Shown: one piece after another, positions 46,829-64,000 of the stretch
Position numbering within the stretch: position 1 is the first letter of the stretch
How the letters are laid out: each line of letters opens with the position of its first letter
Source: Bacteroidota bacterium
GTDB lineage: Bacteria; Bacteroidota; Bacteroidia; 2-12-FULL-35-15
DNA length: 64,000 nucleotides
Direction: 5' to 3'
NCBI GenBank assembly: GCA_037131555.1
Contig: JBAXQU010000006.1
Span: 753 to 64,752, forward strand
Translations under genes and position numbers: made by a program
The notes under the pieces: model-generated
Seen by the model: only the letters and a program-made list of their open reading frames with translations
What the model was told of the DNA's origin: nothing
Databases searched by the model: none

Positions 46829-47656
46829 TCAACTAAAAATGGGTGAAAGGATAGAGTCGCTGTCTATGTTTTGTTGTATAGCCCAACGGAAAATTGTTTT
46901 TCCCTCTTTCGGATAAGTTGGCTCTAATAAAACAAAGGAATTCGTTCTCAACCTTTGTAATTGCTCAATGATGGGATGTTTAATTTCCAAAATTTCTAAA
47001 ATAAATCCTAATCTCTTTATAACTGCCTGTGATTTGAATTGCTCTGCATATTCAAAAAGCTTTCTGTAATCAATTTTATCTTTCGACTTGTAAATTGCTT
47101 TTACAATTTCTGTTATTCCACCAGCATAGCTGGGCTTGAACAAACAATCAATAAGTGTTTTCTCCAAATCAGAACATTGAACTTTGTTGAAACTATCAAT
47201 CCATGTTTTTTTATTTCCAAAAAAATGTTCTTCGTTGTGATAAATAAATTGAAAAGGAATGTTCTTTATTTTAAGTGCTGATGGCTTTATTTGTTTGCTC
47301 ACAACAATTTGTTCTTTCAAGTTTGGTTGTGTTGTTAAACTATGAATTTGAAGAGCGGAAAAATATCCGATGTAATAATTTGCATCACCAACCAAATATT
47401 GCGAAAGCAAATGCCAGTCGGGCATAAATGTTTTTGCATCTTGCTCAAAAGGAATGATGTAATAAACACCATCTTTTATTCGCATAAGCAAACCTCTCTT
47501 GGTCATATCACTTAATAATTTTTTTACTGCATCAGGATTTGAGTTCGGAAGAAGTTTATTTGCCTTGTCAATACCAAAGCAAAGTAACCCTGCTTGATTT
47601 AGTTGGTCAAGTAGTTTATTTGCCTGAAATGAAAGATTTTTATCTTTTATAGCCAT
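46829..47656 (-). CDS. AbiEi family antitoxin / transcriptional regulator
   Basis: Its stop is 1 nt from the AbiEii start. The N-terminal wHTH ...KKLLSDMTKRGLLMRIKDGVYYI is typical. Confidence 0.8.
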   Translation of the reverse strand: MAIKDKNLSFQANKLLDQLNQAGLLCFGIDKANKLLPNSNPDAVKKLLSDMTKRGLLMRIKDGVYYIIPFEQDAKTFMPDWHLLSQYLVGDANYYIGYFSALQIHSLTTQPNLKEQIVVSKQIKPSALKIKNIPFQFIYHNEEHFFGNKKTWIDSFNKVQCSDLEKTLIDCLFKPSYAGGITEIVKAIYKSKDKIDYRKLFEYAEQFKSQAVIKRLGFILEILEIKHPIIEQLQRLRTNSFVLLEPTYPKEGKTIFRWAIQQNIDSDSILSPIFS

Positions 47657-47792: not shown

Positions 47793-49163
47793 TTAAAGTA
47801 AATTAATTTTTTTTGTAATCTTAACCATTCCGAATGTATCTAATTGACAATATTCAAGTAAATGTTTTCGTTGTTCTTTTTGTGTTTCCTCTGACTGATT
47901 CTTCAACTCCGAATAAATTAAACTTGCGCTACCACCATCCTGTATTGTCAAATCACCATAAGTTAATTCTGGAACAAGTACAGGTAATACCTTTTTTATT
48001 GAATACGATTCATTAAAATCTGGATGATAAAATTGCTTCTTTCGGAATGGAACCATAAGGTCAACAACTCGTTCAATCACATGATAAATTTGAGTTTCGT
48101 ATTGTGGGAAATCTCGTCCAAGTTCCTTCAAACGGCTTATCTCAAAGGTTTGATTCCAAACAATAATGCTTCCTTTGTTTCCGAGTGAAGAGAGCAAACC
48201 CTTTATTAACAATTCTCTTGGGTCATTAGTTCCATCTCCGAGAAATTCTTTGTGTTCCAATTCTGAATTTTTATTCCTTTGAATATGTAAAGAATATTGA
48301 AATGGGATTTGCTGATAAGGTCTGCTATTATTGAATTCAGGGACAGCTGGCATTATTGTTTCAAAGTCAAAATAGAATAAAGGGTATTGAAATTCGCTAA
48401 AAAATTCTTTCAAGTACTCTTTATTTATATACTCTTCAAGGTCTGAATTTCTTTCTTCCACTTCAACATTTTTCCAACAATAGTCAGAAAAGTCGCAAGG
48501 ATAAGGTTTGTCGCACTGGTCTCCCACTTCAATGATAGGTTCTATTCTGTCGGAAATCACTTTCTTTAGTTCTACAATTTTTGTTTCAATAAATTCCTGC
48601 TGCGCTTTTACTTGTTCGTGAATTGTTTGCTTTGTAAATAATTCCTGAACATTAATTTCTCCTCTCCGAACATATTGATTATTCAAGTGAACAATAAATA
48701 TATCTTCAAGTTTTATTCCTGATTTTATTATTACAAAGTACTGCAATGCAGCATCAACAATATGTTGCGACTTAACCCCCGTTGTTCCTTTTACTTCAAA
48801 AGCATACCATTTATTATCTTCTTTTACAAGAACATCAATCGCACATAAAACACCATCATAGTTAAAACACGCTTCATATATGATGTTTACGCCTTCTTTA
48901 ATTAATTGCTGAGTTTTCTCAACAGAAAGATGATATGAAAACGCATCAGGTGGTTCAGCATTAATACCTCCTGGAAAAAGTCCTTGAGCCAACAAACCAA
49001 CATTTGTTCCTGAAGAAAAAATTGATTGTTGGGCTTCATCTTCAGGATTTCTCAACTCAGGTTTGAACTTATGTAGATACAGTCGTTTCGGACATTGGCA
49101 GCCGTAAACGAATGTGGATTTTGACAGTATGTGTTTAGTGTAATTCATTAACTTATTTGACAA
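47793..49163 (-). CDS. DUF2779-type protein: Cas4/RecB-like PD-(D/E)xK nuclease with Fe-S cysteines plus a DEDD-like exonuclease domain
   Basis: N-terminus LSKSTFVYGCQCPKRLYL. The Cys cluster is CDKPYPCDFSDYC. The C-terminal half has FYFDFETIMPAVP (a D-x-E exonuclease-like motif). Confidence 0.75.
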   Translation of the reverse strand: MSNKLMNYTKHILSKSTFVYGCQCPKRLYLHKFKPELRNPEDEAQQSIFSSGTNVGLLAQGLFPGGINAEPPDAFSYHLSVEKTQQLIKEGVNIIYEACFNYDGVLCAIDVLVKEDNKWYAFEVKGTTGVKSQHIVDAALQYFVIIKSGIKLEDIFIVHLNNQYVRRGEINVQELFTKQTIHEQVKAQQEFIETKIVELKKVISDRIEPIIEVGDQCDKPYPCDFSDYCWKNVEVEERNSDLEEYINKEYLKEFFSEFQYPLFYFDFETIMPAVPEFNNSRPYQQIPFQYSLHIQRNKNSELEHKEFLGDGTNDPRELLIKGLLSSLGNKGSIIVWNQTFEISRLKELGRDFPQYETQIYHVIERVVDLMVPFRKKQFYHPDFNESYSIKKVLPVLVPELTYGDLTIQDGGSASLIYSELKNQSEETQKEQRKHLLEYCQLDTFGMVKITKKINLL

Positions 49164-49268: not shown

Positions 49269-50021
49269 CTAAATATTGTTTTGAATTATTTCATTTGTTT
49301 GAAGTGCTCTGTTTAATAACATCAGAACGTTGCTTGGTCTAAATTGTTTTCCACGGCTACTCCTGAAACCCTCTGAATTCAACTTGTCTGCAATTTGTTG
49401 AAGAGTACTACCTGAATTGCGAAGAAGTATAATATATCCAGAAGCCTTTCTATTGTTATCGTTTAAGCTTGCCAACTCCTTTCTTCTGTCTTTACCTTTT
49501 TTTATATTCTCTTCTGTTAATCCATGTTTACTTGTATCACGTTTGAATCCTCTGTCTTTAAGGGCTTTTAAGGCTGCCTTGGTTCTTTCAGAAATTCTTA
49601 ATAATTCTTCTTCGGCTAAACTTGTTTTAAGTTTTACAATAAAAGCTGTATCGCTTGGAGCATCAGCAAATTCAAAGGTTATACCACTCTTGAGTAAAAA
49701 TTCCATAAGTAAAGAATACCTCGTTAATCGAGAGCTTTCCTTCGCTACTATTATAGCTCCATTAGTTTCAGCTAATTTTAAAGCACTAAGAAGAAGTGGA
49801 CGTTTTGATAACAAACTTTCAATGCTTACTTGTTTGTCAACCGAGATTTTATCTTTTGAACCAGCGGTTTCAACTTCTGTGAAAGAATCAATAATTTCTC
49901 CACCGACATTCTTGACAAAAAGTTCAACAGATGATTTTTGAGATTCCAAACCGAGGTGTGAAATATTTTGTTTGACGGTTGAGACTCTATAATAAGATAT
50001 GTATTTTTTGATTTTTACCAT
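49269..50021 (-). CDS. Small serine recombinase (resolvase/invertase family)
   Basis: YYRVSTVKQ catalytic Ser motif, with a C-terminal HTH (STLQQIADKLNSEGF). Confidence 0.85.
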   Translation of the reverse strand: MVKIKKYISYYRVSTVKQNISHLGLESQKSSVELFVKNVGGEIIDSFTEVETAGSKDKISVDKQVSIESLLSKRPLLLSALKLAETNGAIIVAKESSRLTRYSLLMEFLLKSGITFEFADAPSDTAFIVKLKTSLAEEELLRISERTKAALKALKDRGFKRDTSKHGLTEENIKKGKDRRKELASLNDNNRKASGYIILLRNSGSTLQQIADKLNSEGFRSSRGKQFRPSNVLMLLNRALQTNEIIQNNI

Positions 50022-54670: not shown

Positions 54671-55540
54671 ATGAAAAAAGAGGACATATATACTATGGTA
54701 ACTGATAGAATCATTAGTAAGCTTAACACTGGCGTTGTGCCTTGGAACTGCGGATACACAAGCATGGCTCCACAAAATTTCCTGACAAAGAAACCTTACC
54801 GTGGAATTAATCATTGGATAACGATAAGTAATAATTTCTCTTCACCTTATTATTTATCATTCAAACAGGTGAAGGATTTAGGAGGTGCAGTGATTGCAGG
54901 TTCAAAGGGAACTCCCGTTGTCTATTGGCAAATACTTGAGAAGAAAGAAAGGAATGCGGATGGAGTTATGGAGAAAAAAACAATTCCGCTTTTGAAATAT
55001 TATACTGTGTTCAATGCTGAACAAACCACAGGAATAGACTTTCCAGTGGTAGAAAATAAGATTTCAAATATAGCTTTGCTTGATGAAGTGCTTGGAAAGA
55101 TGAATCAGAAGCCTGTTATTCGTGAAAGCCAAATCTACTCTCCATGCTACATTCCTGCACTCGATGAAATAAGAATGCCTTTAAAAAACAGCTATGAATC
55201 ATCAGCAAGATATTATAAAACTTTGCTGCATGAGATAGGTCACTGGACAGGAGCTTCAACCAGACTTAAGAGAGAAGGCATTATGAACTTTGATGGATTT
55301 GGTTCTCACAAATATAGTGTGGAGGAATTGGTTGCAGAGCTTACAGCAAGCTATGCAATGACCTTTGCTGGAATGGAGGAGCAGACGATAGACAACTCAG
55401 CTGCTTATATTCAAAGCTGGATTAAGGCTTTGCAAAACGACACCAAGTTTATTTTCAAAGCAGCCAAGCAAGCTGAACTCGCATGGAAATTTATTAATAA
55501 CGATATAGGTTGCAAGGATGAAATAAAAGAAGCGGCATAA
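54671..55540 (+). CDS. ardC: ArdC-like antirestriction protein (N-terminal ssDNA-binding DUF1738 domain + zincin metallopeptidase)
   Basis: VPWN......KKPYRGINHWI is the ArdC-N pattern. The C-terminal LLHEIGHWTG is HExxH. Confidence 0.8.
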   Translation: MKKEDIYTMVTDRIISKLNTGVVPWNCGYTSMAPQNFLTKKPYRGINHWITISNNFSSPYYLSFKQVKDLGGAVIAGSKGTPVVYWQILEKKERNADGVMEKKTIPLLKYYTVFNAEQTTGIDFPVVENKISNIALLDEVLGKMNQKPVIRESQIYSPCYIPALDEIRMPLKNSYESSARYYKTLLHEIGHWTGASTRLKREGIMNFDGFGSHKYSVEELVAELTASYAMTFAGMEEQTIDNSAAYIQSWIKALQNDTKFIFKAAKQAELAWKFINNDIGCKDEIKEAA

Positions 55541-55946: not shown

Positions 55947-56183
55947 TTACTTGACGAATTTCCTGTAATATTCCCAGAAATTAACTGCCACTTCTGTTGG
56001 AAATAAAATCAAGTTTTTGTACTCTGTTGTTTCGATAAACGGTTCCAGTTTTTTCATCAATCGGAAGCTCTCTACCTTGTTATTGCAGTGAAGGATTTGT
56101 TGCAGTGTGAAGTGGTCAACGTAGAGTCGCTTGTTTATTAAATATTGTACAAAGCTATATTCGCCTGTTGGAAGTTGTTCCAT
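55947..56183 (-). CDS. Hypothetical protein (78 aa)
   Basis: ORF with an upstream TTATAAATAGTCGAAAAAAA variant motif. Confidence 0.4.
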   Translation of the reverse strand: MEQLPTGEYSFVQYLINKRLYVDHFTLQQILHCNNKVESFRLMKKLEPFIETTEYKNLILFPTEVAVNFWEYYRKFVK

Positions 56184-56548
56184 AGTTTTTTTGTTATAAA
56201 TAGTCGAAAAAAATAAATGTTACAAAACATTATCTTATAAAAGAAGGAAATTTTAGATGTTGCAATTTTATCCTGGAAAACCCAACCTCTCCCTGGAGCG
56301 ACCCAAATGGGCGTTTTAATGAAACATATCATTACTAGGTTTAAGCACGTTTTGTATTCCGAAATATCCGCCTCTCCCTGGACACTGGTTCCTTAAATAA
56401 GACCCCATTGGCTTAATTTAGTGGCGGTAATGAAGGGGGTAATTTTAGGGCAGGGGCTTAAATAGACCCCCTAAATTTCGTAAAGAAAAAATGTGTTATG
56501 AAAGATTATATTTAGCTATTTATAAGCAGAGAAATCAACAAAAGAATT

Positions 56549-57139
56549 ATGAAAGAAATTGAAGTAAAAACATCTGGAAATAAAGAGGGAGAAAACACTT
56601 ATTTATACTTGAGCACTGTAAAATTTGAGCACCTCAAATATTTGGGAAATATTGAATTTAATGTGGAGCTATTTGTGGCCAATAAAAAGGATGGAAATGA
56701 AGTCTATTTTATTGATGAATTTAACATGAGTGATGTCTTCGAACACTTGAGTCGAAAAGCAACCATAGAAAAATTAATTGAAGTGATGAATGATTACGAT
56801 TTGTTAGTAAAAGAATATGTCCTTTCTACTGAGGAGTTCAGACTTCAATCAGTCGTTGGCAAGGATGTGTTAATTCAAATGACTGGTGAAAAGAAATCAT
56901 TAAAAATGCTGATGGACAAGCTGTATGACTTATGGGATATTCCAAACTTGACTGTGACACTTGAACTTGTTTCAAAGATTCGTTCTGGTCGTCTTCTTGA
57001 GATTTCAGGCGCTGATATAAAAATTGTGAGAGACATGCCTTCTCCCCATTACCTTATCTATTGGCTAATTCAGGACTTCGAAAAAAGAGTGATTGGTAAG
57101 GCCCAAGAAATTTATCCTCAAAGGTTTTATATGTGCTAA
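56549..57139 (+). CDS. Hypothetical protein (196 aa)
   Basis: ORF only. Confidence 0.5.
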   Translation: MKEIEVKTSGNKEGENTYLYLSTVKFEHLKYLGNIEFNVELFVANKKDGNEVYFIDEFNMSDVFEHLSRKATIEKLIEVMNDYDLLVKEYVLSTEEFRLQSVVGKDVLIQMTGEKKSLKMLMDKLYDLWDIPNLTVTLELVSKIRSGRLLEISGADIKIVRDMPSPHYLIYWLIQDFEKRVIGKAQEIYPQRFYMC

Positions 57140-57201
57140 TAATTTCTTGGAACAACAAAAAATGATACTGCCTTTTGAATTAAGCTGTATCCTCCTTCTT
57201 C

Positions 57202-57549
57202 CTATTCCCTGTATGTGTAACCAAGTTCTGCGAAATATTTCTCGCACATAAATTCAATGAAACCCTCTGGGGAAAAATGTTCCTCATCTGCAAAATAACG
57301 CAAGTAGAGCAAAATTAAATTCGGGTGCAGGTCTCTGTTCTGCACGTGATGGAATGCTGGGTTCCCATTGTCAAAGAAAAAGAATTCGTCCTCTTGTGTG
57401 CCAGATTTCAACGTTACTTTGGCAATCTTCTTTGCATTGCTTCGGAATACATTATATGTGATTCCATGCTTGATACTGCCCACTTTCGTTGGTCTTCCAC
57501 TTTTATTTAGGAGAATTATTTCTCCGTTTTCGTTTACTAAATTTTTCAT
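57202..57549 (-). CDS. Hypothetical protein, paralog A of the retron-adjacent small protein
   Basis: Shares collinear blocks with the 59492-59857 product: LLN..G.PT.V...K.G.TYN, KKI.KVT.KSG..EDEF.FF..G.PAFH and EGFI.FMC. Confidence 0.55.
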   Translation of the reverse strand: MKNLVNENGEIILLNKSGRPTKVGSIKHGITYNVFRSNAKKIAKVTLKSGTQEDEFFFFDNGNPAFHHVQNRDLHPNLILLYLRYFADEEHFSPEGFIEFMCEKYFAELGYTYRE

Positions 57550-57776
57550 AATTCTTTTTTCTTATAAATAGTTAAGAAAAAGTGAAAAACTACGTTACAA
57601 TACAAAAAGACTCTTGCTTAAAAGCAACAAGATTGGGTTTCCCGAACTACAAATTCCACAATATTGAATCTGATATATTATACATATTCTCAACAATAAA
57701 ATATCTACTTCAGTATTGCATATTAAACCTATTTAATAAGATGTCAGGTCTCCGTTTTTAATTCCAAAAATATAGT

Positions 57777-57784
57777 TACATTTG
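57777..57784 (+). promoter_or_regulatory. Bacteroidota-type -7 box (TACATTTG) upstream of the PD-(D/E)xK operon
   Basis: Matches TAnnTTTG, 17 nt upstream of the ATG at 57801. Confidence 0.4.
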
Positions 57785-57800
57785 ATAAAAATTTAAAACC

Positions 57801-58826
57801 ATGAAGCCAAATATTTTCGAAATTTCAACAAAAGAACTTAGTCAAGACGCCTTTATAACTTGGTTGTTACAATGGGCTGATATATCTAACATTGAATATG
57901 ATGCTAACTTGAGAATTTGTGGTTCTGAATTTATCTCTGAATTAATCAAAAAGGAAATGCCTGAATTTAATGAACCCATAACTACTGTTCGAGCTGGAAG
58001 GCAATGGGAGAATATTGATGTATGGGCAGAAGTAAATGACAAATACTTAATTATTATTGAAGATAAAACTTATACAGGGCAACATTCAGGCCAGTTAGCC
58101 AGATATAGAGCAATTGCAGAAAAATGGTGTAATGAACAGACTCCAAAATATAATTCTCCCATTTGTATTTATTTAAAAACAGGAAATGAATCTCAACAAA
58201 GTCTAAAGATAGTTCAGGAAGATGGTTTTAAAATTTATCAAAGACATGATTTTATTACACTCCTACAAAATCACAACTTAAACAATGATATTATTAATGA
58301 TTTTAAAGCTCGCATTATTAATATTGAAAAAGTAAATAATGAGTGGGAATCTAAACTTATTAAAGAATGGAATGGAAACGACTGGCAGGGATTTTTCCAG
58401 TATTTAGAAAAGGAAATAAATATAGCTGGATGGAACTTTGTAAATAATCCAAATGGCGGATTTTGGAACTCAGTCTTAAATTGGGAGTATTGGAATGATT
58501 ATCCTGTTTATTTGCAAACTGAAGAATTTAAACTTTGTTTTAAAATTTCAACTGACCCAGAAGAAGTTGATATGCCGCAAGATATTACTCGTGGTGAAAT
58601 ACGAGACGAAATTAGTACTTTGATTCTCAAAAACGCAAAGGAAAAAGGTCTTAATTTTATTCGCCGACCTGATAGATTTGGGAATGGAAAATCTATGACT
58701 GTGGCTATTGTGGATGGTATTCATTGGCTTGGAGATAAAGAACAGAAAATAGTTAAAGAAAATGTGGTAGCAATACTTAAATCTTACAAAAACTTTCTAA
58801 TTGAGGTAATTAAAACTGGTAAATAA
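57801..58826 (+). CDS. PD-(D/E)xK nuclease superfamily protein
   Basis: N-terminus ELSQDAFITWLLQW, then IDVWAEV...YLIIIEDKTYT, which fits the D...ExK core. Confidence 0.65.
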   Translation: MKPNIFEISTKELSQDAFITWLLQWADISNIEYDANLRICGSEFISELIKKEMPEFNEPITTVRAGRQWENIDVWAEVNDKYLIIIEDKTYTGQHSGQLARYRAIAEKWCNEQTPKYNSPICIYLKTGNESQQSLKIVQEDGFKIYQRHDFITLLQNHNLNNDIINDFKARIINIEKVNNEWESKLIKEWNGNDWQGFFQYLEKEINIAGWNFVNNPNGGFWNSVLNWEYWNDYPVYLQTEEFKLCFKISTDPEEVDMPQDITRGEIRDEISTLILKNAKEKGLNFIRRPDRFGNGKSMTVAIVDGIHWLGDKEQKIVKENVVAILKSYKNFLIEVIKTGK

Positions 58827-58839
58827 ATTATAATTTAAT

Positions 58840-59409
58840 ATGGAGTTAATAAAATTAGCTGATATAATATACAAGAATACAAATAAACTAAATTTTGGAG
58901 GGAATAAGGATTGGGATGATTCAATTTTTTTGAAGATTTGGTTTGACAATTTAGCTGAATCCATACCTAATAACAAAGGATTGTACTGGTTTATTTCTGA
59001 TTGTAATTTATCGCAATTAAAACTACCTAAAGAATTCCCCAAGAATGGTTGCAATTTTAGTGAAACGAGCTATAATAATGTTAAAACGTTTGGGGACTCA
59101 TTATTGACTTATTTAGATGAAAAGAAACAAAGAGTAGTATATAATGGACATCAACAAAATGTAATGAATAGAGTCCGCCAGCACTTTCATTTGGATAACC
59201 AAACAACAGGTGCTTTAGGAATAAAAAAGTATTCACTCTCATCCTCAACTTGGATTTTAAAATACTTTACATTAAATGACGTTCCAAAAATTATTGATGA
59301 AAAAGAAAAGAGCCAAATAACGAGTTTGCTTAATTCAACCACTGGAAGAATTGCATTGGAAAATGCATGGAGAATAAAATATGGATGGCCACCACTTTGT
59401 AAACTTTAA
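58840..59409 (+). CDS. Hypothetical protein; weak GIY-YIG-like features
   Basis: KGLYWFI ... VVYNGHQQNVMNRVRQH ... LENAW, but the GIY-to-YIG spacing is far longer than canonical. Starts 13 nt after the nuclease gene, suggesting an operon. Confidence 0.35.
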   Translation: MELIKLADIIYKNTNKLNFGGNKDWDDSIFLKIWFDNLAESIPNNKGLYWFISDCNLSQLKLPKEFPKNGCNFSETSYNNVKTFGDSLLTYLDEKKQRVVYNGHQQNVMNRVRQHFHLDNQTTGALGIKKYSLSSSTWILKYFTLNDVPKIIDEKEKSQITSLLNSTTGRIALENAWRIKYGWPPLCKL

Positions 59410-59491
59410 AGATGTCAATTCCTGAATTCAATAATCACAATTGGGAGTTTAATTAAATCACTTAATTTTTCTGCAAAAACAATTCTTATTT

Positions 59492-59857
59492 CTATTCACT
59501 CTCTTCATATTCTTGACATGTGTAGCCCTCAATTGCAAAGTGGCAACCACACATGAAATCTATAAATCCTTCAGCGCTTTTCTGGGTTTCTTTGGTGAAA
59601 TATTTTAAATAGATTCCTTTCAATTGAAAGGAATCGCCTGTATCTTGCTGTATATTATGGAAAGCGGGTGTTCCGCTTTCAAAGAAATAAAATTCATCTT
59701 CAAGTTGACCAGATTTGATTGTTACTTTGGTTATCTTCTTTGGACCGTTCATTGACTCATTATAAGTAACTCCTTGCTTCAAGGTTGCAACCCTTGTGGG
59801 AATTCCATTCGCATTGAGGAGAACGATGTGCCCATATTGGTTAGGTATATATTCCAT
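59492..59857 (-). CDS. Hypothetical protein, paralog B, starting 12 nt downstream of the retron RT
   Basis: See paralog A. Its position makes it a candidate retron partner or effector. Confidence 0.55.
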   Translation of the reverse strand: MEYIPNQYGHIVLLNANGIPTRVATLKQGVTYNESMNGPKKITKVTIKSGQLEDEFYFFESGTPAFHNIQQDTGDSFQLKGIYLKYFTKETQKSAEGFIDFMCGCHFAIEGYTCQEYEESE

Positions 59858-59869
59858 GTTTTTTCTTGT

Positions 59870-60922
59870 TTAAAAAATTGATACGTTAGGATTCCTCTTT
59901 CCAGAACCCATCCTAAACATTCCCACTTCTTTACTTTGCTGCAACAATCCCCTGTAAACCCCATCATCCTTTCCCTTCACTTGTCCGACAAAATTTATTT
60001 TTCCTTCAATCTTTTGTAATAGACTTTGCATTAATTTCTTGTCTACCTCCTTAAGGACATAATGTTTTTGTGTTGCTGCTTCAAGTCCATTTAGTTTTAT
60101 ATCATGTATTGTTGCACGGATATTTCTCACATATTTCCTATCAACATTTGTTTTTGCATTGACTTTTATTCCTGTAACAGTTTGTTGCCGAAACTTGCTT
60201 TGCATTCTGAACTTCTTTTCATTCAATTGGAATCCAAAAGCGGTTATTGATGCTTTTATTTGTGTGATTGCCTCATCACTGATGTTTTCGTTTGATGAAA
60301 AAGTCATGTCATCTGCATATCTTGTGTAGGTCAGTTTGTGCTCTTGTGCAATTGCCATAAGTTGCTTGTCAAGTGGAATGCAAATCAGATTGGAGACTAC
60401 AGGAGATGTCGGAGCACCCATCGGCAATCTTCCTTTGTAACAACAAATGAGGGCGAGGCATGTTGCCAGGTCGTCATTAAAGTTATAGGGGTGTTTCTTG
60501 AAAAACTCTCTTACCTGTATGGCAGAAATACTATGAAAGAAATCTTTGAGGTCAATATTAAGCACATACTTTTTATTCAAGTGATTTTTTGCATTTGAAA
60601 TAATAGTATGAGGTTTTGCATCCTCTTGATAAGATAATACAAAGCCATAGGCAGCCTCTGGTTTAATAATGCAATAGAGAGCCTGAAGAAATGAATTCAG
60701 ACGTTTTTGCAATTCTCTAAGTTGTAGGTTGGGAGACTCTATTGTTCTATACCCTTTTTTTTTCTTTGGAATCTTAAACTCAAAATAGCTTGCGTTTTTT
60801 ATTACCCCAATAAATTCAGGAAAATAACACATCAATAACTTCGACAATTCATTTGCACTTTTAAGTGAAAGGAATTTAACCGAGTTCTCGATAAGCTCTT
60901 TATGTTTAAGTATAGTTTTCAT
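59870..60922 (-). CDS. Retron-type reverse transcriptase
   Basis: RT motifs IPKKKKGYRTI, LNIDLKDFFHSI, LPMGAPTSPVVSN and YTRYADDMTFSS, plus the retron-typical NAKNH (NAxxH) and QTVTGIKVN (VTG) signatures. At 350 aa it has no maturase, endonuclease or other fused domain. Confidence 0.88.
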   Translation of the reverse strand: MKTILKHKELIENSVKFLSLKSANELSKLLMCYFPEFIGVIKNASYFEFKIPKKKKGYRTIESPNLQLRELQKRLNSFLQALYCIIKPEAAYGFVLSYQEDAKPHTIISNAKNHLNKKYVLNIDLKDFFHSISAIQVREFFKKHPYNFNDDLATCLALICCYKGRLPMGAPTSPVVSNLICIPLDKQLMAIAQEHKLTYTRYADDMTFSSNENISDEAITQIKASITAFGFQLNEKKFRMQSKFRQQTVTGIKVNAKTNVDRKYVRNIRATIHDIKLNGLEAATQKHYVLKEVDKKLMQSLLQKIEGKINFVGQVKGKDDGVYRGLLQQSKEVGMFRMGSGKRNPNVSIF

Positions 60923-60925
60923 TTT

Positions 60926-61095
60926 GAAAAAGGAAGAACCGATTGATTTTCTAAAAGAAGTTTGATGCTTTAGAATTTTTTATTTCAAAAAATTCTAAAG
61001 CATCTACTATTTCATCTCATTATGATGACGATTGCAGGTACACAATCAATAGCTTTAGTCCGCTCAAAATCTTCTTCGGTTCTATCCTTTTGTTT
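60926..61095 (-). ncRNA. Candidate retron msr-msd non-coding RNA
   Basis: Lies between the helicase stop and the RT start. The 5' arm (61066-61091) pairs with the 3' arm (60927-60950) as 15 + 6 bp. A perfect 18-bp hairpin at 60964-61004 has a 5-nt loop. Two 5-bp stem-loops lie in the 5' half. The 3' arm ends 4 nt before the RT ATG. Confidence 0.5.
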
Positions 61096-61108
61096 TATAA
61101 ATAAATTT

Positions 61109-62245
61109 TCAGAATGGGTGGTCTTCTTCAATATCATTAGACTTGCTTCCTCTATTCTTCAAATCAGTATTAAATTCATTCTTGCGCATATCCTTGAAGA
61201 ACTCTCCTTCAATTCCTGAAAAGAACGTTTCTTCATAGTCTTTGAATGAAGCAGATTTTGCAGTGAATCTGAGGCGAACAGTATCCAATGGCCCGCTCCT
61301 GTTTTTTGCAATGATTATATCTGCAATTCCCAATGTGCTGTTCCCCTCTCCGTCTTCTGTAATATTATAATATTCTGGGCGATGAAGGAAAAAAACTTTA
61401 TCAGCATCCTGCTCGATTGCTCCAGACTCACGCAGGTCAGAAAGAACAGGTCGCTTGTCTCCACCACGAGTCTCCACAGCCCTGCTAAGTTGGGAACTCA
61501 CAAATACGGCAACATTATATTTCCTTGCCATCCTTTTTAGTTCCCTGCAAATGGTGGCGATTTCCATTTCCCTATTCTCCCTCCTGCTTCTGGTTCTTAT
61601 CAACTGAAGGTAGTCAATGATTATGAGCTGGATTCCTTTCTCTCGCACAAGAAAATCGGTTCTTGAAATAATATCATCCAAAGAAAAAAAAGTGTCTTCA
61701 ATTGTGAGATTTGCAGTCTCCAGAATAGCTGATTTGCGAGAGATTTCCTGCAACTGATACTCTTCAAGTTTTTTCGATACAAGATGATGATAGCTGCAGT
61801 CAGCAATGTTACTAAGCATCCTGAGAAGCATATACTGAGCAGAGTTCTCAAGTGAGAAAAATGCTATTGGAGAATTTTTATTTAATATAGAATTTATCAT
61901 AATTGATACCATGAATGCTGACTTTCCCATTGCAGGACGAGCACCAAGAATTATTAATTCACCAAGAGGAAGGCCTCCTATAATTCTGTCCAAATCAGCA
62001 AACCCAGTTGGTACACAAGAAAACAAATTGCTTGTCTCGTTTGGTGTAACCACCTCCTTAACTGTTTCGCTGAGCAGTTCCTGAAAGTTGGATTCGTTTC
62101 TGTCATCTCTGTATTCATTATTCAGAGATAAGAACCTTGCTGTCCACTTGCTTAGCATCTCCTGCTCGGAAAGATTGTATTTTTTTATATCCAGCTCCAT
62201 TTCTTCAGGAATTCGAGAAAGCATTTCATTTAATTTTTTTGTCAT
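61109..62245 (-). CDS. DnaB-like helicase C-terminal (RecA-fold) protein lacking most of the DnaB N-terminal domain
   Basis: TGFADLDRIIGGLPLGELIILGARPAMGKSAF, IIIDYLQLI, SQLSRAVETRGGDKRPVLSDLRESGAIEQDADKV and IIAKNRSGP. Only about 85 aa precede the ATPase domain. Confidence 0.85.
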   Translation of the reverse strand: MTKKLNEMLSRIPEEMELDIKKYNLSEQEMLSKWTARFLSLNNEYRDDRNESNFQELLSETVKEVVTPNETSNLFSCVPTGFADLDRIIGGLPLGELIILGARPAMGKSAFMVSIMINSILNKNSPIAFFSLENSAQYMLLRMLSNIADCSYHHLVSKKLEEYQLQEISRKSAILETANLTIEDTFFSLDDIISRTDFLVREKGIQLIIIDYLQLIRTRSRRENREMEIATICRELKRMARKYNVAVFVSSQLSRAVETRGGDKRPVLSDLRESGAIEQDADKVFFLHRPEYYNITEDGEGNSTLGIADIIIAKNRSGPLDTVRLRFTAKSASFKDYEETFFSGIEGEFFKDMRKNEFNTDLKNRGSKSNDIEEDHPF

Positions 62246-62393
62246 GTGTTATAAATTTTGGTCAAAGGAATAGAATTATTTATTCTGTTTTTGTATTGTT
62301 TATAAATTAAAATATAATTATCAACATCTGATATTTGTTGCTCTGAATTACAATTTATGGAAGCATATAATTGAATTAAATTGTCCCATCCTA

Positions 62394-63389
62394 TTAAGCA
62401 ATATCCCTAAGCATTCCACTCTTTTCTTGCCAATAATATTTATGGTCATCCCTACGTGAATTGCGAAAATCAGGGTGGCATACAACCCTCCAGCTTTCTT
62501 TAATGGGCATTTGAATTCCTGGGACTTCAAGAAGCTTATATCCGCTATCTAATGGTTTATCTTTCCTTCTTAAAAGCTTTTCAGCACCTCTTGTCAATAG
62601 AACTTTTGTGTCAGGAATCGCATACAACAACTGATTCAAGTAATTAGATAATTTTATTTGATACCTCATTGGCTTTAATTTACCAATCGGGAAATAACTC
62701 GCATTTACCAATCCAACGCCACTTTCAGTGACAAGGTTCATAAATATATCCTCAGTGTTTTTAATGTTATTGTATTTCTGTGATAAAATATCTGTGCCAA
62801 AACCATTAAGTAGATAGCGACCTGAGCAATTTGGTTTTCTCGATTCCTTTAGGTCATTTTTACAGAAAGGTATTCCCATAGGGTCATTGGGATAAGGGTC
62901 TCGACCAATGAAAAGTATTTTTAATTTACCTCTGTTTGCTAAAAGGGAATCAAAATACTTTGGATAAATTTTTAACTTGTCATTAATAAGTTTGTTGTCC
63001 AATCTGTCATTCAGGTAAAATGCTAGTTCAGAAAATGTGTTTATGTTATCAGTGTCTAAATCATAAATTTGTATATCTAATGCTTGCTCAAGCTCCATAT
63101 AAAAGCCCATACAATCCCAGGAATAGTTGAGAAACTTATTTGAATAATAGTTGTTTAAATTCTCTCCCAGTTTTTTTGCTTCAGCTTTTCTTGCAAGTTG
63201 AAACATATCTTCTTCAGCAATTTCATCAGGTTTAAGCTCCAGATAGTTTTCAAATACTCTTTTTAAAAGAAAAATTAAATTGGTTATGTCAGTCAAATTT
63301 GCTGACTTTTCTTTAGAAAAATTCGCTGGTAGAACTTTACCTTGTACCTCTAGCTCCTTTTGAACTTTAACTTTTTCTCTTGGCTTCAT
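62394..63389 (-). CDS. Divergent UDG-superfamily domain protein with a ~160-aa N-terminal extension of unknown function
   Basis: Four collinear blocks match the window's own ung: FIGRDPYP / IGQDPYH, GVGLVN / GILLLN, KVLLTRG / IVFLLWG, CHPD / AHPS, with similar spacing. I prefer the start at 63389 (1 nt after the WYL stop); the alternative is 63410. Confidence 0.55.
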   Translation of the reverse strand: MKPREKVKVQKELEVQGKVLPANFSKEKSANLTDITNLIFLLKRVFENYLELKPDEIAEEDMFQLARKAEAKKLGENLNNYYSNKFLNYSWDCMGFYMELEQALDIQIYDLDTDNINTFSELAFYLNDRLDNKLINDKLKIYPKYFDSLLANRGKLKILFIGRDPYPNDPMGIPFCKNDLKESRKPNCSGRYLLNGFGTDILSQKYNNIKNTEDIFMNLVTESGVGLVNASYFPIGKLKPMRYQIKLSNYLNQLLYAIPDTKVLLTRGAEKLLRRKDKPLDSGYKLLEVPGIQMPIKESWRVVCHPDFRNSRRDDHKYYWQEKSGMLRDIA

Positions 63390-63390
63390 T

Positions 63391-64000
63391 TTAGTACCGA
63401 TTTGATGCATCTTGATGGGCAGCCTTGATTTTATTCATTAATATTTTTGGTTTGATAACTTTTACATTATCTCCGTGGGAAAGCAGTTCCATTATGAAAT
63501 CATAAGTAATAAAAAGTTTAAGTTTAATTTGTAGTTCTTCTTCTGTATCCTTTATAATCTGCTGTGTTGAATGCAACGGAAGGGTTTTAATAAACTTGCC
63601 TTGCAAAGCAGTAAAACTTAAAATGATTTCGTACGGAGCAGCTTCATTTGGGCTTATAATACCAAAACAATAACGATAATTTTCTTCCACCTGGTTAAGG
63701 TTCTTTTGCTCATACTTTGATATAGTTATTTCCAAATTAGATAATCTGTCCAGAGCAAAACTTTTCAATGTATCATCTTTGAGGTCTTTTGCCATCACAT
63801 ACCACCTGGATTTGAATTCCTTCAAAACATAGGGTTCAACATGGCGAGTGCTTGAATCTTGTTCCCAGAATTTCTTGTAGATAAATTTTATTTTAAGTTT
63901 ATTTTTGATTGCGTGAAGCAATCCGTATAGGTTCTCTGTGCCCTGCGGCTGGCGACTTTCAAGATGTATGAATGGCTTAAGGTCTTGTGCCAGGTTAAGA
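63391..64000 (-). CDS. WYL-domain transcriptional regulator, C-terminal part; the N-terminus is outside the window
   Basis: The frame stays open from 63921 to base 63999, the last complete codon before the window edge. ...IKFIYKKF....STRHVEPYVLKEFKSRWYVMAKD... is the WYL core. Confidence 0.75.
   Translation of the reverse strand, partial: LNLAQDLKPFIHLESRQPQGTENLYGLLHAIKNKLKIKFIYKKFWEQDSSTRHVEPYVLKEFKSRWYVMAKDLKDDTLKSFALDRLSNLEITISKYEQKNLNQVEENYRYCFGIISPNEAAPYEIILSFTALQGKFIKTLPLHSTQQIIKDTEEELQIKLKLFITYDFIMELLSHGDNVKVIKPKILMNKIKAAHQDASNRY

Follow-up and report, generated by a model that had tools for sequence, protein, structure and literature searches.

The 64,000-nucleotide stretch of Bacteroidota DNA considered here (contig JBAXQU010000006.1 of assembly GCA_037131555.1, positions 753 to 64,752; hereafter the window) raises the question of what is encoded in a 186-nt spacer (60923-61108, minus strand) located between a DnaB-like gene and the gene of a retron-type reverse transcriptase (RT). 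Retrons are bacterial elements producing a small single-stranded DNA, usually for phage defence. In an earlier note, made from the letters of the window, the spacer was proposed to carry a retron non-coding RNA (ncRNA), i.e., an msr-msd RNA in which the two arms of a closing helix (a2 and a1) enclose msr stem-loops and an msd hairpin. The spacer RNA is very probably a genuine retron msr-msd ncRNA, i.e., a template RNA. This reading is based on: (i) the stable fold of the RNA; (ii) the retron-type RT encoded next to it; (iii) an architecture that covaries in relatives; (iv) an invariant junction; (v) a variable hairpin.

The RT is a stand-alone protein. RVT_1 is the only domain found, and no C-terminal effector domain (protease, TOPRIM or TIR) was detected. 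Its best PADLOC and NCBIfam matches are all retron RTs. In PADLOC only the RT part of the profiles is matched, i.e., RT-Protease_XI (3e-100, positions 4-321 of 510), RT-TIR_XII (1e-96) and RT-Toprim_I-C (1e-96); in NCBIfam the matches are the retron TIR, Ec67 and St85 models, all under their cut-offs. The motifs NAxxH (region X; N110 A111 H114), YADD (202-205) and VTG (region Y; 249-251) are invariant in 34 members of the clade. Three other assignments were rejected: (i) a fused I-C or XII type, as the NCBIfam score is 275 bits for cut-offs of 450 and 600; (ii) a canonical type XI, as the 350-aa protein has no C-terminal trypsin-like protease; (iii) a diversity-generating retroelement, as no template/variable direct-repeat pair is found in 56000-63000, where the only long repeat is that of paralogous small genes.

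Folding of the minus strand with RNAfold, proposed as a check in the earlier note, gives exactly the architecture listed in Table 1. The minimum free energy (MFE) of 60915-61115(-) is -56.1 kcal/mol, as compared with -30.5 +/- 4.0 kcal/mol for dinucleotide shuffles (z = -6.46, reached by none of 200). The a1 and a2 arms alone form a duplex of -20.5 kcal/mol (z = -6.6, reached by none of 2000 shuffles of the 3' arm). When the minus strand was read base by base, both arms were found where they had been placed, with GAGCGG following the 5' arm (61065-61060), the two small stem-loops announced (GAUUG..CAAUC and UCAUC..GAUGA) and the perfect 18-bp hairpin, an 18-nt inverted repeat with 100% complementarity. 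The end of the 3' arm lies, as described, 4 nt before the ATG of the RT (60922-60920). The closing helix had been given as 15 + 6 bp. The helix is present, but its outer part is not an uninterrupted run of 15 bp: it contains a one-base bulge or a U.U mismatch, and its 16-nt arms are 81% complementary without gaps. RNAfold adds a stem-loop (SL1), which was not in the earlier list; it has 3 bp in the window and does not belong to the 19-sequence consensus used below.

Table 1. Positions in the window of the candidate ncRNA and its parts, of the two flanking genes and of genes of the surrounding island.
Feature	Position	Strand	Basis or detail
Whole candidate retron ncRNA (msr-msd), 5' end of a2 to 3' end of a1	60927..61091	-	RNAfold and covariance model R1
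a2, 5' arm of the closing helix, AAAAGGAUAGAACCGAAGAAGAUUUU	61066..61091	-	Outer strand 61077-61091, internal loop 61072-61076, inner GAUUUU 61066-61071
Invariant G-A directly 3' of a2; G61065 is the candidate branching (priming) G	61064..61065	-	Alignment columns 33-34
SL1, weak stem of 3-4 bp, AGC..GCU (AGCG..CGCU in relatives)	61051..61064	-	Individual folds
SL2, conserved msr stem-loop GAUUGU-GUACCU-GCAAUC (consensus GGUUGUGUACCUGCAACC)	61030..61047	-	Pairing conserved
SL3, second msr stem-loop	61012..61028	-	Compensatory changes
Long hairpin, 18 perfect bp and 5-nt loop, 41 nt; predicted msd stem and template of the msDNA hairpin	60964..61004	-	Inverted repeat
Linker before a1, AAACUUCUUUUAG, ending in A-G 60952-60951	60951..60963	-	Alignment columns 306-307
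a1, 3' arm of the closing helix, AAAAUCAAUCGGUUCUUCCUUUU	60927..60950	-	Inner AAAAUC 60945-60950, outer strand 60927-60941
Stand-alone retron-type RT, 350 aa	59870..60922	-	Pfam RVT_1, 1.2e-23
N-terminally shortened DnaB-type ATPase/helicase, 378 aa	61109..62245	-	Pfam DnaB_C, 2e-80
AbiEi	46829-47656		Island gene
DUF2779/Cas4-like nuclease	47793-49163		Island gene
Serine recombinase	49269-50021		Island gene
ArdC anti-restriction protein	54671-55540		Island gene
WYL regulator (WYL+WCX, 176 aa)	63391-63921	-	Island gene

Loci of relatives were taken from genome and metagenome collections and from an exact-protein look-up; they belong to Bacteroidota metagenome-assembled genomes (MAGs) and metagenome contigs, and are designated below by L or P and a number. 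The fold is shared by 30 other RT-upstream regions, whose RTs are 38-72% identical to that of the window. Every element of the proposed a2 / msr stem-loops / msd hairpin / a1 layout thus recurs upstream of homologous retron-type RT genes. The close clade comprises 22 sequences, window included (relatives' RT 56-72% identical), all with the same architecture upstream of the RT. It is characterized by closing-helix arms GGAUAGAACCG / CGGUUCUUCC and an inner helix GAUUAU / AUAAUC, then GAGCG, SL2 (GGUUGUGUACCUGCAACC), SL3, a long hairpin of differing sequence and UUUUAGAUAAUC ahead of the 3' arm.

A covariance model, R1, was obtained from 19 sequences (the window and 18 homologous spacers) with an RNAalifold consensus of 25 pairs. 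Its sole significant match in the window is 60928-61090(-), with 139.5 bits and an E-value of 8.8e-24, a score which is partly reached by construction. A weak second match (48371-48472 on the minus strand, 18.4 bits, E 0.14) lies inside the DUF2779 gene and is most likely due to chance. With R1, about 11 or 12 more distant members (38-46% RT identity) were also found, each immediately upstream of its RT gene. Their closing helices are wholly different in sequence, e.g., UAGGGGAUUGAC / GUCAAUCCCC and CAGGCAGG / CCUGCCUG, and the plan is kept: the inner helix is followed by UAUGA, and AGAUAAU precedes its 3' strand, as seen in individual MFE folds. More generally, of 61 distinct DnaB-RT spacers, 53 have a closing helix that comprises at least 10 bp and spans 100 nt or more. 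A scan of genome contigs for the exact motif, with a very strict pattern, returned only the contig of L003. Among the viral contigs of IMG/VR the best RT relative is 37% identical, and there is no sign of a phage-borne clade.

Pairing was compared with that obtained after sliding the 3' partners. In a structure-blind MAFFT alignment of the 19 close sequences, 94.5% of the cells are paired vs. 31-54% for slid partners, and 8 of the 25 pairs show compensatory changes. In the alignment fitted to the model (33 distinct sequences) these values become 96.4% vs. 33-54%, with compensatory changes in 18 of the 25 pairs, among them, in the a2/a1 closing helix, each of the 7 modelled outer pairs and 4 of the 6 inner ones; on none of the five measures was the observed value attained in any of 500 shuffles. 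RNAalifold applied to 8 sequences gives 12 compensatory pairs out of 42. The covariation analysis of regions upstream of RT homologs, which the earlier note had also called for, thus revealed both compensatory changes and inverted repeats.

As a single sequence, the plus strand of the window element folds as well as the minus strand. The strand was therefore settled by comparison with relatives. The annotated pairs include 76 G-U vs. 5 A-C cells, and the RT-sense strand folds about 5 kcal/mol better on average, being the better one in 25 of 31 sequences (Wilcoxon p = 5e-5). The G-U excess and the better folding of the sense strand indicate that the element is selected as RNA on the RT strand. 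The same result bears on an explanation at the DNA level, i.e., a loading or single-strand initiation site for the DnaB-like helicase or the replication origin of a mobile element. Such a function would suit the DnaB-family gene adjoining the element, the equal folding of both window strands and the setting of the locus in an island with ArdC, serine recombinase and AbiEi genes. However, it is hardly credible in view of the G-U/A-C asymmetry together with the conserved single-stranded loops, which point to an RNA; moreover, beside the pair no other replication or mobility gene is conserved across 63 non-redundant loci, and the spacer is found with the RT just as strictly as it is with the helicase.

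The inner elements of the RNA are also those expected for a retron. Directly 3' of a2, the G and the following A are each found in 31 of 31 distinct sequences; at the other end of the enclosed region, the A-G preceding a1 is found in 30 (A) and 31 (G) of the 31. Pairing of a2 with a1 sets G61065 opposite this A-G. By analogy, these junction bases stand where the branching G lies and the template begins in retrons, the corresponding guanosine being G15 in Eco2 (PMC12916289). G61065 would thus be the priming base, and 60952-60951 are the predicted first templated bases if reverse transcription starts as in canonical retrons. SL2 is paired in 99.5% of the cells, with swaps from G-C to A-U and from U-A to C-G and an invariant closing U.G. 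SL3 has compensatory changes in 5 of 6 modelled pairs and is paired in 90% of the cells; in the register of the relatives its copy in the window has one A.A mismatch, or else it adopts a shifted register.

The long hairpin is characterized by a constant position and a variable sequence. All 31 sequences have it at this position, with a length of 11-27 bp (median 17) and a differing sequence. As MAFFT leaves its arms out of register, no pair counts are given for the hairpin and its presence was tested locus by locus against shuffles: the median z of the segment is -5.3, and it is better than all 200 shuffles in 25 of the 31 sequences. The share of G-U pairs is 3.3% in the hairpin vs. 10.6% in the scaffold (Fisher p = 7e-7). 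Such a depletion is expected if the complementary DNA must pair too, and the predicted DNA complement of the hairpin region does fold (-17.9 kcal/mol, z = -6.75). The tips of the hairpins (60975-60993 in the window; L004, L165, L087, L097) often share a conserved UUUUUYGAAAWRAAAAA, even between the close and distant clades and despite differing stems. Such a tip may serve for recognition, either of the RNA or of the msDNA (multicopy single-stranded DNA).

Several observations nevertheless weigh against a retron ncRNA. (i) The A/U-rich composition of the hairpin, and shared ancestry, could partly account for its low G-U content. (ii) The model-fitted alignment leans towards structure; the slid-partner control and the individual MFE folds of the distant members are independent of that fit. 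(iii) Shuffle controls overstate significance because the sequences are phylogenetically related. (iv) As mentioned, the two strands of the window element are equivalent when folded alone. (v) The Rfam search gave no family match, only hairpin-driven microRNA look-alikes with 14-26 bits for gathering scores of 35-115. (vi) The promoter scan gave 11 promoter-like sites where 11.2 are expected, none of them assignable. (vii) In a lenient scan the hairpin is flagged as terminator-like on both strands, and passes together with its U-rich tail; at least 5 U within 8 nt are found shortly 3' of the hairpin in 17 of 31 relatives, commonly in the close clade.

This last point, as well as the position of the hairpin downstream of the stop codon of the DnaB-like gene, would fit an intrinsic terminator of that gene, the other helices forming an attenuator or anti-terminator leader for read-through into the RT, and no DNA product being made. 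Such a function is highly improbable. The stem is A/U-rich (4 G-C of 18-19 pairs) and its tail begins with AAAC. Distant relatives (e.g., L110, L027, L097, L088) retain the hairpin with 0-4 U in the tail, so that the alternative already raised in the earlier note, a hairpin merely terminating the helicase gene, is poorly supported. Moreover, about 105 nt separate the hairpin from the stop codon, and the covarying closing helix in which it is enclosed has its 3' arm against the RT start. If transcripts ended at the hairpin, no obvious promoter would be left for the RT, as only about 40 nt remain. A terminator also leaves the invariant G-A / A-G junction and the conserved SL2 and SL3 unaccounted for. 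The hairpin may additionally lower read-through; the rest of the element is not explained by such a role.

The position of a1 raises another alternative, i.e., a structured 5' leader of the RT mRNA, in which a1 would mask the start region and regulate translation, the RNA being bound by the RT or another protein and not reverse transcribed. The short distance between the 3' arm and the ATG in the window, the conserved core of this arm ending 8-12 nt before the ATG in 22 close relatives and the conservation of RNA structure on the RT strand are all in keeping with it. However, the RT falls in a retron clade, and in the known members of this clade an adjacent RNA of just this kind, flanked by a1/a2, serves as template (PMC7736814; PMC12916289), and a variable, almost purely Watson-Crick hairpin suits the template of a DNA hairpin better than a regulatory stem. 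A regulatory a1 would moreover be compatible with a retron ncRNA and is no replacement for it; a leader without reverse transcription is thus very unlikely.

If the spacer RNA is a retron ncRNA, its use can be described from canonical retrons. The conserved stem-loops would be bound by the RT. The 2'-OH of G61065 would serve as primer; copying of the RNA would begin at about G60951, run through the hairpin and stop somewhere near 61005-61015. This would yield a branched msDNA of about 55-65 nt with an 18-bp DNA hairpin, 5'-CTAAAAGAAGTTTGATGCTTTAGAATTTTTT..., whose predicted 5' end opposite G60951 reads 5'-CTAAAAGAAG... (the start being given as 5'-CTAAAAGAAGTTTGATGC).

The second gene flanking the spacer encodes a DnaB-like protein. 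It aligns to residues 134-464 of E. coli DnaB, thus the N-terminal domain is absent. The Walker A and Walker B motifs, the SQLSR arginine and the other helicase motifs are conserved in the DnaB-like proteins. The Walker A lysine comes after 106 residues in the close clade (368-396 aa). The partner of the distant clade (L011-L016, L087, L097 and others) is full length, with 435-500 aa and about 200 residues before that lysine. PADLOC gave no meaningful match for the protein of the window.

In 63 non-redundant loci a DnaB_C gene immediately precedes the RT gene and has the same orientation. It is present in almost every locus having enough upstream DNA and an RT at least about 40% identical to that of the window; among the loci examined, L136 is the only clear exception at RT identity of at least 40%. 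In the 50 non-redundant loci with both genes complete the spacer measures 117-230 nt, and the pairwise identities of RT and DnaB_C are strongly correlated (Pearson r = 0.92; Mantel test, reached by none of 2000 permutations). Clustering of the open reading frames (ORFs) of the 63 loci places RT and DnaB_C in 59 loci each; the next family (probably WYL regulators) is found in 8. The flanks vary widely: integrase, transposase, HSP70-like, UvrD-like, PLD nuclease, AAA ATPase and WYL genes are found. The closest RT relative, P0002 (81% identity), is known from its gene order, i.e., WYL, DnaB_C, a 172-nt gap and RT. In some relatives (L001) a2 starts right at the stop codon of DnaB_C, which suggests that the three parts probably form one operon, or that a promoter lies inside the DnaB-like gene.

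By its co-occurrence and co-evolution with the RT, the DnaB-type ATPase is the third component of the retron, predicted to be its effector or partner. The earlier note had mentioned a helicase: the gene is there, but its membership in the system had not been recognised. Two other proposals were rejected. The DnaB-like gene is not a mere mobile-element neighbour, as RT and DnaB_C are the only genes conserved at the pair and co-evolve. The 121-aa ORF downstream of the RT was discarded as effector, as it is not conserved beside the RT in any other locus.

How such a protein would act is more speculative. If other retrons are a guide, the DnaB-like protein would be kept inactive by the RT-msDNA complex until phage infection disturbs the msDNA; loading of the helicase on tailed hairpin DNA is one speculative possibility. 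A scheme can be drawn in which the shortened DnaB helicase is the effector, is loaded on or held by the tailed hairpin msDNA and, once released by phage interference, would cause replication arrest or DNA unwinding. This scheme is rather doubtful, and a variant in which the RT product would prime or mark replication for the helicase is more remote. If the scheme were true, the retron would have a helicase as output, not a nuclease, toxin or protease, and would represent a widespread module of two genes and one RNA in aquatic Bacteroidota.

The comparison with known retrons starts with the archetypes (Ec86/Eco1 etc.; PMC7736814). The plan is shared, i.e., a1/a2 arms, branching G, msr stem-loops, msd hairpin, an RT immediately downstream and a co-evolving accessory gene. 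In contrast, the accessory protein here is a DnaB-family ATPase, encoded upstream of the ncRNA and not downstream of the RT. The closest experimentally studied relative of the RT is that of Eco2/Ec67 (type I-C), with a similar RT domain (274.7 bits for NCBIfam retron_Ec67_fus, and the PADLOC RT-Toprim_I-C value given above, both over the RT part only). Eco2 likewise has a1/a2, a branching G (G15) after a2 and an msd template (PMC12916289). It differs in that a TOPRIM nuclease is fused to the RT in one protein and a separate partner is absent, whereas here the protein ends after the RT domain and a separate DnaB-like partner is present; the window RT also remains under the family cut-off (275 vs. 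450 bits), and its a2 is longer, with 26 nt before the G. Canonical type XI retrons (RT and trypsin-like protease; PMC7736814) give the best-scoring profile for the window RT and belong to the same RT clade 8, but the protease is absent here.

In the classification of Mestre et al. 2020 (PMC7736814), no recognisable ncRNA was found for type XI (RT-protease, clade 8), and in none of the 13 retron types is the partner a helicase; the text never uses the word «helicase». A DnaB-family accessory class is likewise not among the PADLOC models. It must be noted that three canonical type XI loci (L059:3707-3946, L068:3638-3877 and L139:2734-2973) show a long closing helix in MFE folds of the 240 nt upstream of the RT, and that L059 and L068 contain an SL2-like motif, CGUUGUGUU(C/A)C(U/A)GC(G/A)ACG. 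With filters off, R1 gave no significant match on these three fused RT-protease loci. Canonical type XI retrons may thus have an ncRNA too; this is a lead only, and membership in the same RNA family is not claimed.

The nearest description is that of Toro (bioRxiv 2026, May preprint, doi 10.64898/2026.05.14.725207), a computational study reporting protease-less type XI-like retron lineages. One of these, TXI_noncan_h, comprises 29 loci; DnaB_C is adjacent in 20 of them, with an offset of +1 in 14 of the 20, and the predicted RNA upstream of the RT is an a1/a2-flanked «compact double stem-loop» of 23 bp. By description, the present loci resemble it in the following: a stand-alone clade-8 RT without protease, a neighbouring DnaB_C protein and an a1/a2-flanked RNA upstream. 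The differences are that DnaB_C is mostly at offset +1 there and directly upstream, on the same strand, in the 63 loci here, and that neither a long variable hairpin nor an invariant G is mentioned in the preprint, the RNAs being compared by description only. Table S2 of the preprint assigns the MAG of the relative L019 (DITN01) with low confidence to type XI («typeXI, low») and gives DnaB_C as one of the neighbours; the MAG of the closer relative L004 (CAINDA01) appears, also with low confidence, as «type1-C3, low» with WCX, UDG and DnaB_C. The latter is not discussed there as a lineage, and the type I-C3 group was assigned low novelty priority. The MAGs of the relatives thus fall in two different bins (XI and I-C3). 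In the literature searched, no other paper connects retrons with DnaB-like proteins. The DnaB_C-retron kind has therefore already been outlined, recently and computationally, and the locus of the window is a further member. What is new here is the fixed upstream DnaB_C, its co-evolution with the RT, the full anatomy of the ncRNA (variable msd hairpin and invariant junction) and the evidence for the strand.

The ncRNA of a retron must be known before its msDNA, its role in defence or its use as genome-editing donor can be tested, and the 2020 reference classification (PMC7736814) did not find the ncRNAs of RT clade 8 except in the fused I-C type. The present locus is a clean and delimited example, with exact a2 and a1 arms, a candidate branching G and a 41-nt msd hairpin replaceable by a donor sequence, accompanied by about 30 covarying relatives. 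A minimal construct of about 2.4 kb holding the three parts would allow the DnaB_C-retron pairing to be tested directly. The main interest lies in the DnaB_C-ncRNA-RT module more than in the RNA itself.

From about 42000 to 64000, the surroundings of the retron form an apparent mobile or defence island (Table 1), and the GC content falls from about 0.37 to about 0.32 past 42 kb. The window contains no tRNA genes. Two small minus-strand ORFs, 59492-59857 (121 aa) and 57202-57549 (115 aa), are paralogues with 50% identity and have no Pfam, NCBIfam or PADLOC match; the first lies directly 3' of the RT. The pair flanks a gene of a PD-(D/E)XK nuclease (57801-58826, PADLOC PDC-S26-like) and a 189-aa ORF. 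On the other side, the WYL+WCX ORF has 176 aa vs. 305 aa in the P0002 locus, where it directly precedes the DnaB-like gene; in the window an unannotated ORF of 338 aa (62394-63410, minus strand) lies between the two. A truncation or a frameshift may have shortened the WYL gene of the window; alternatively, its start, close to the end of the window, may have been called wrongly.

An A/T-rich motif (repeat families D4 and D11) occurs at 61084-61103, 57551-57581 and 56187-56213; on the minus strand it reads TATTTATAA, followed by one variable base and an A-rich run. Its sites are located just upstream of two minus-strand gene starts and of the 5' arm of the ncRNA, and it may be a promoter or leader motif.

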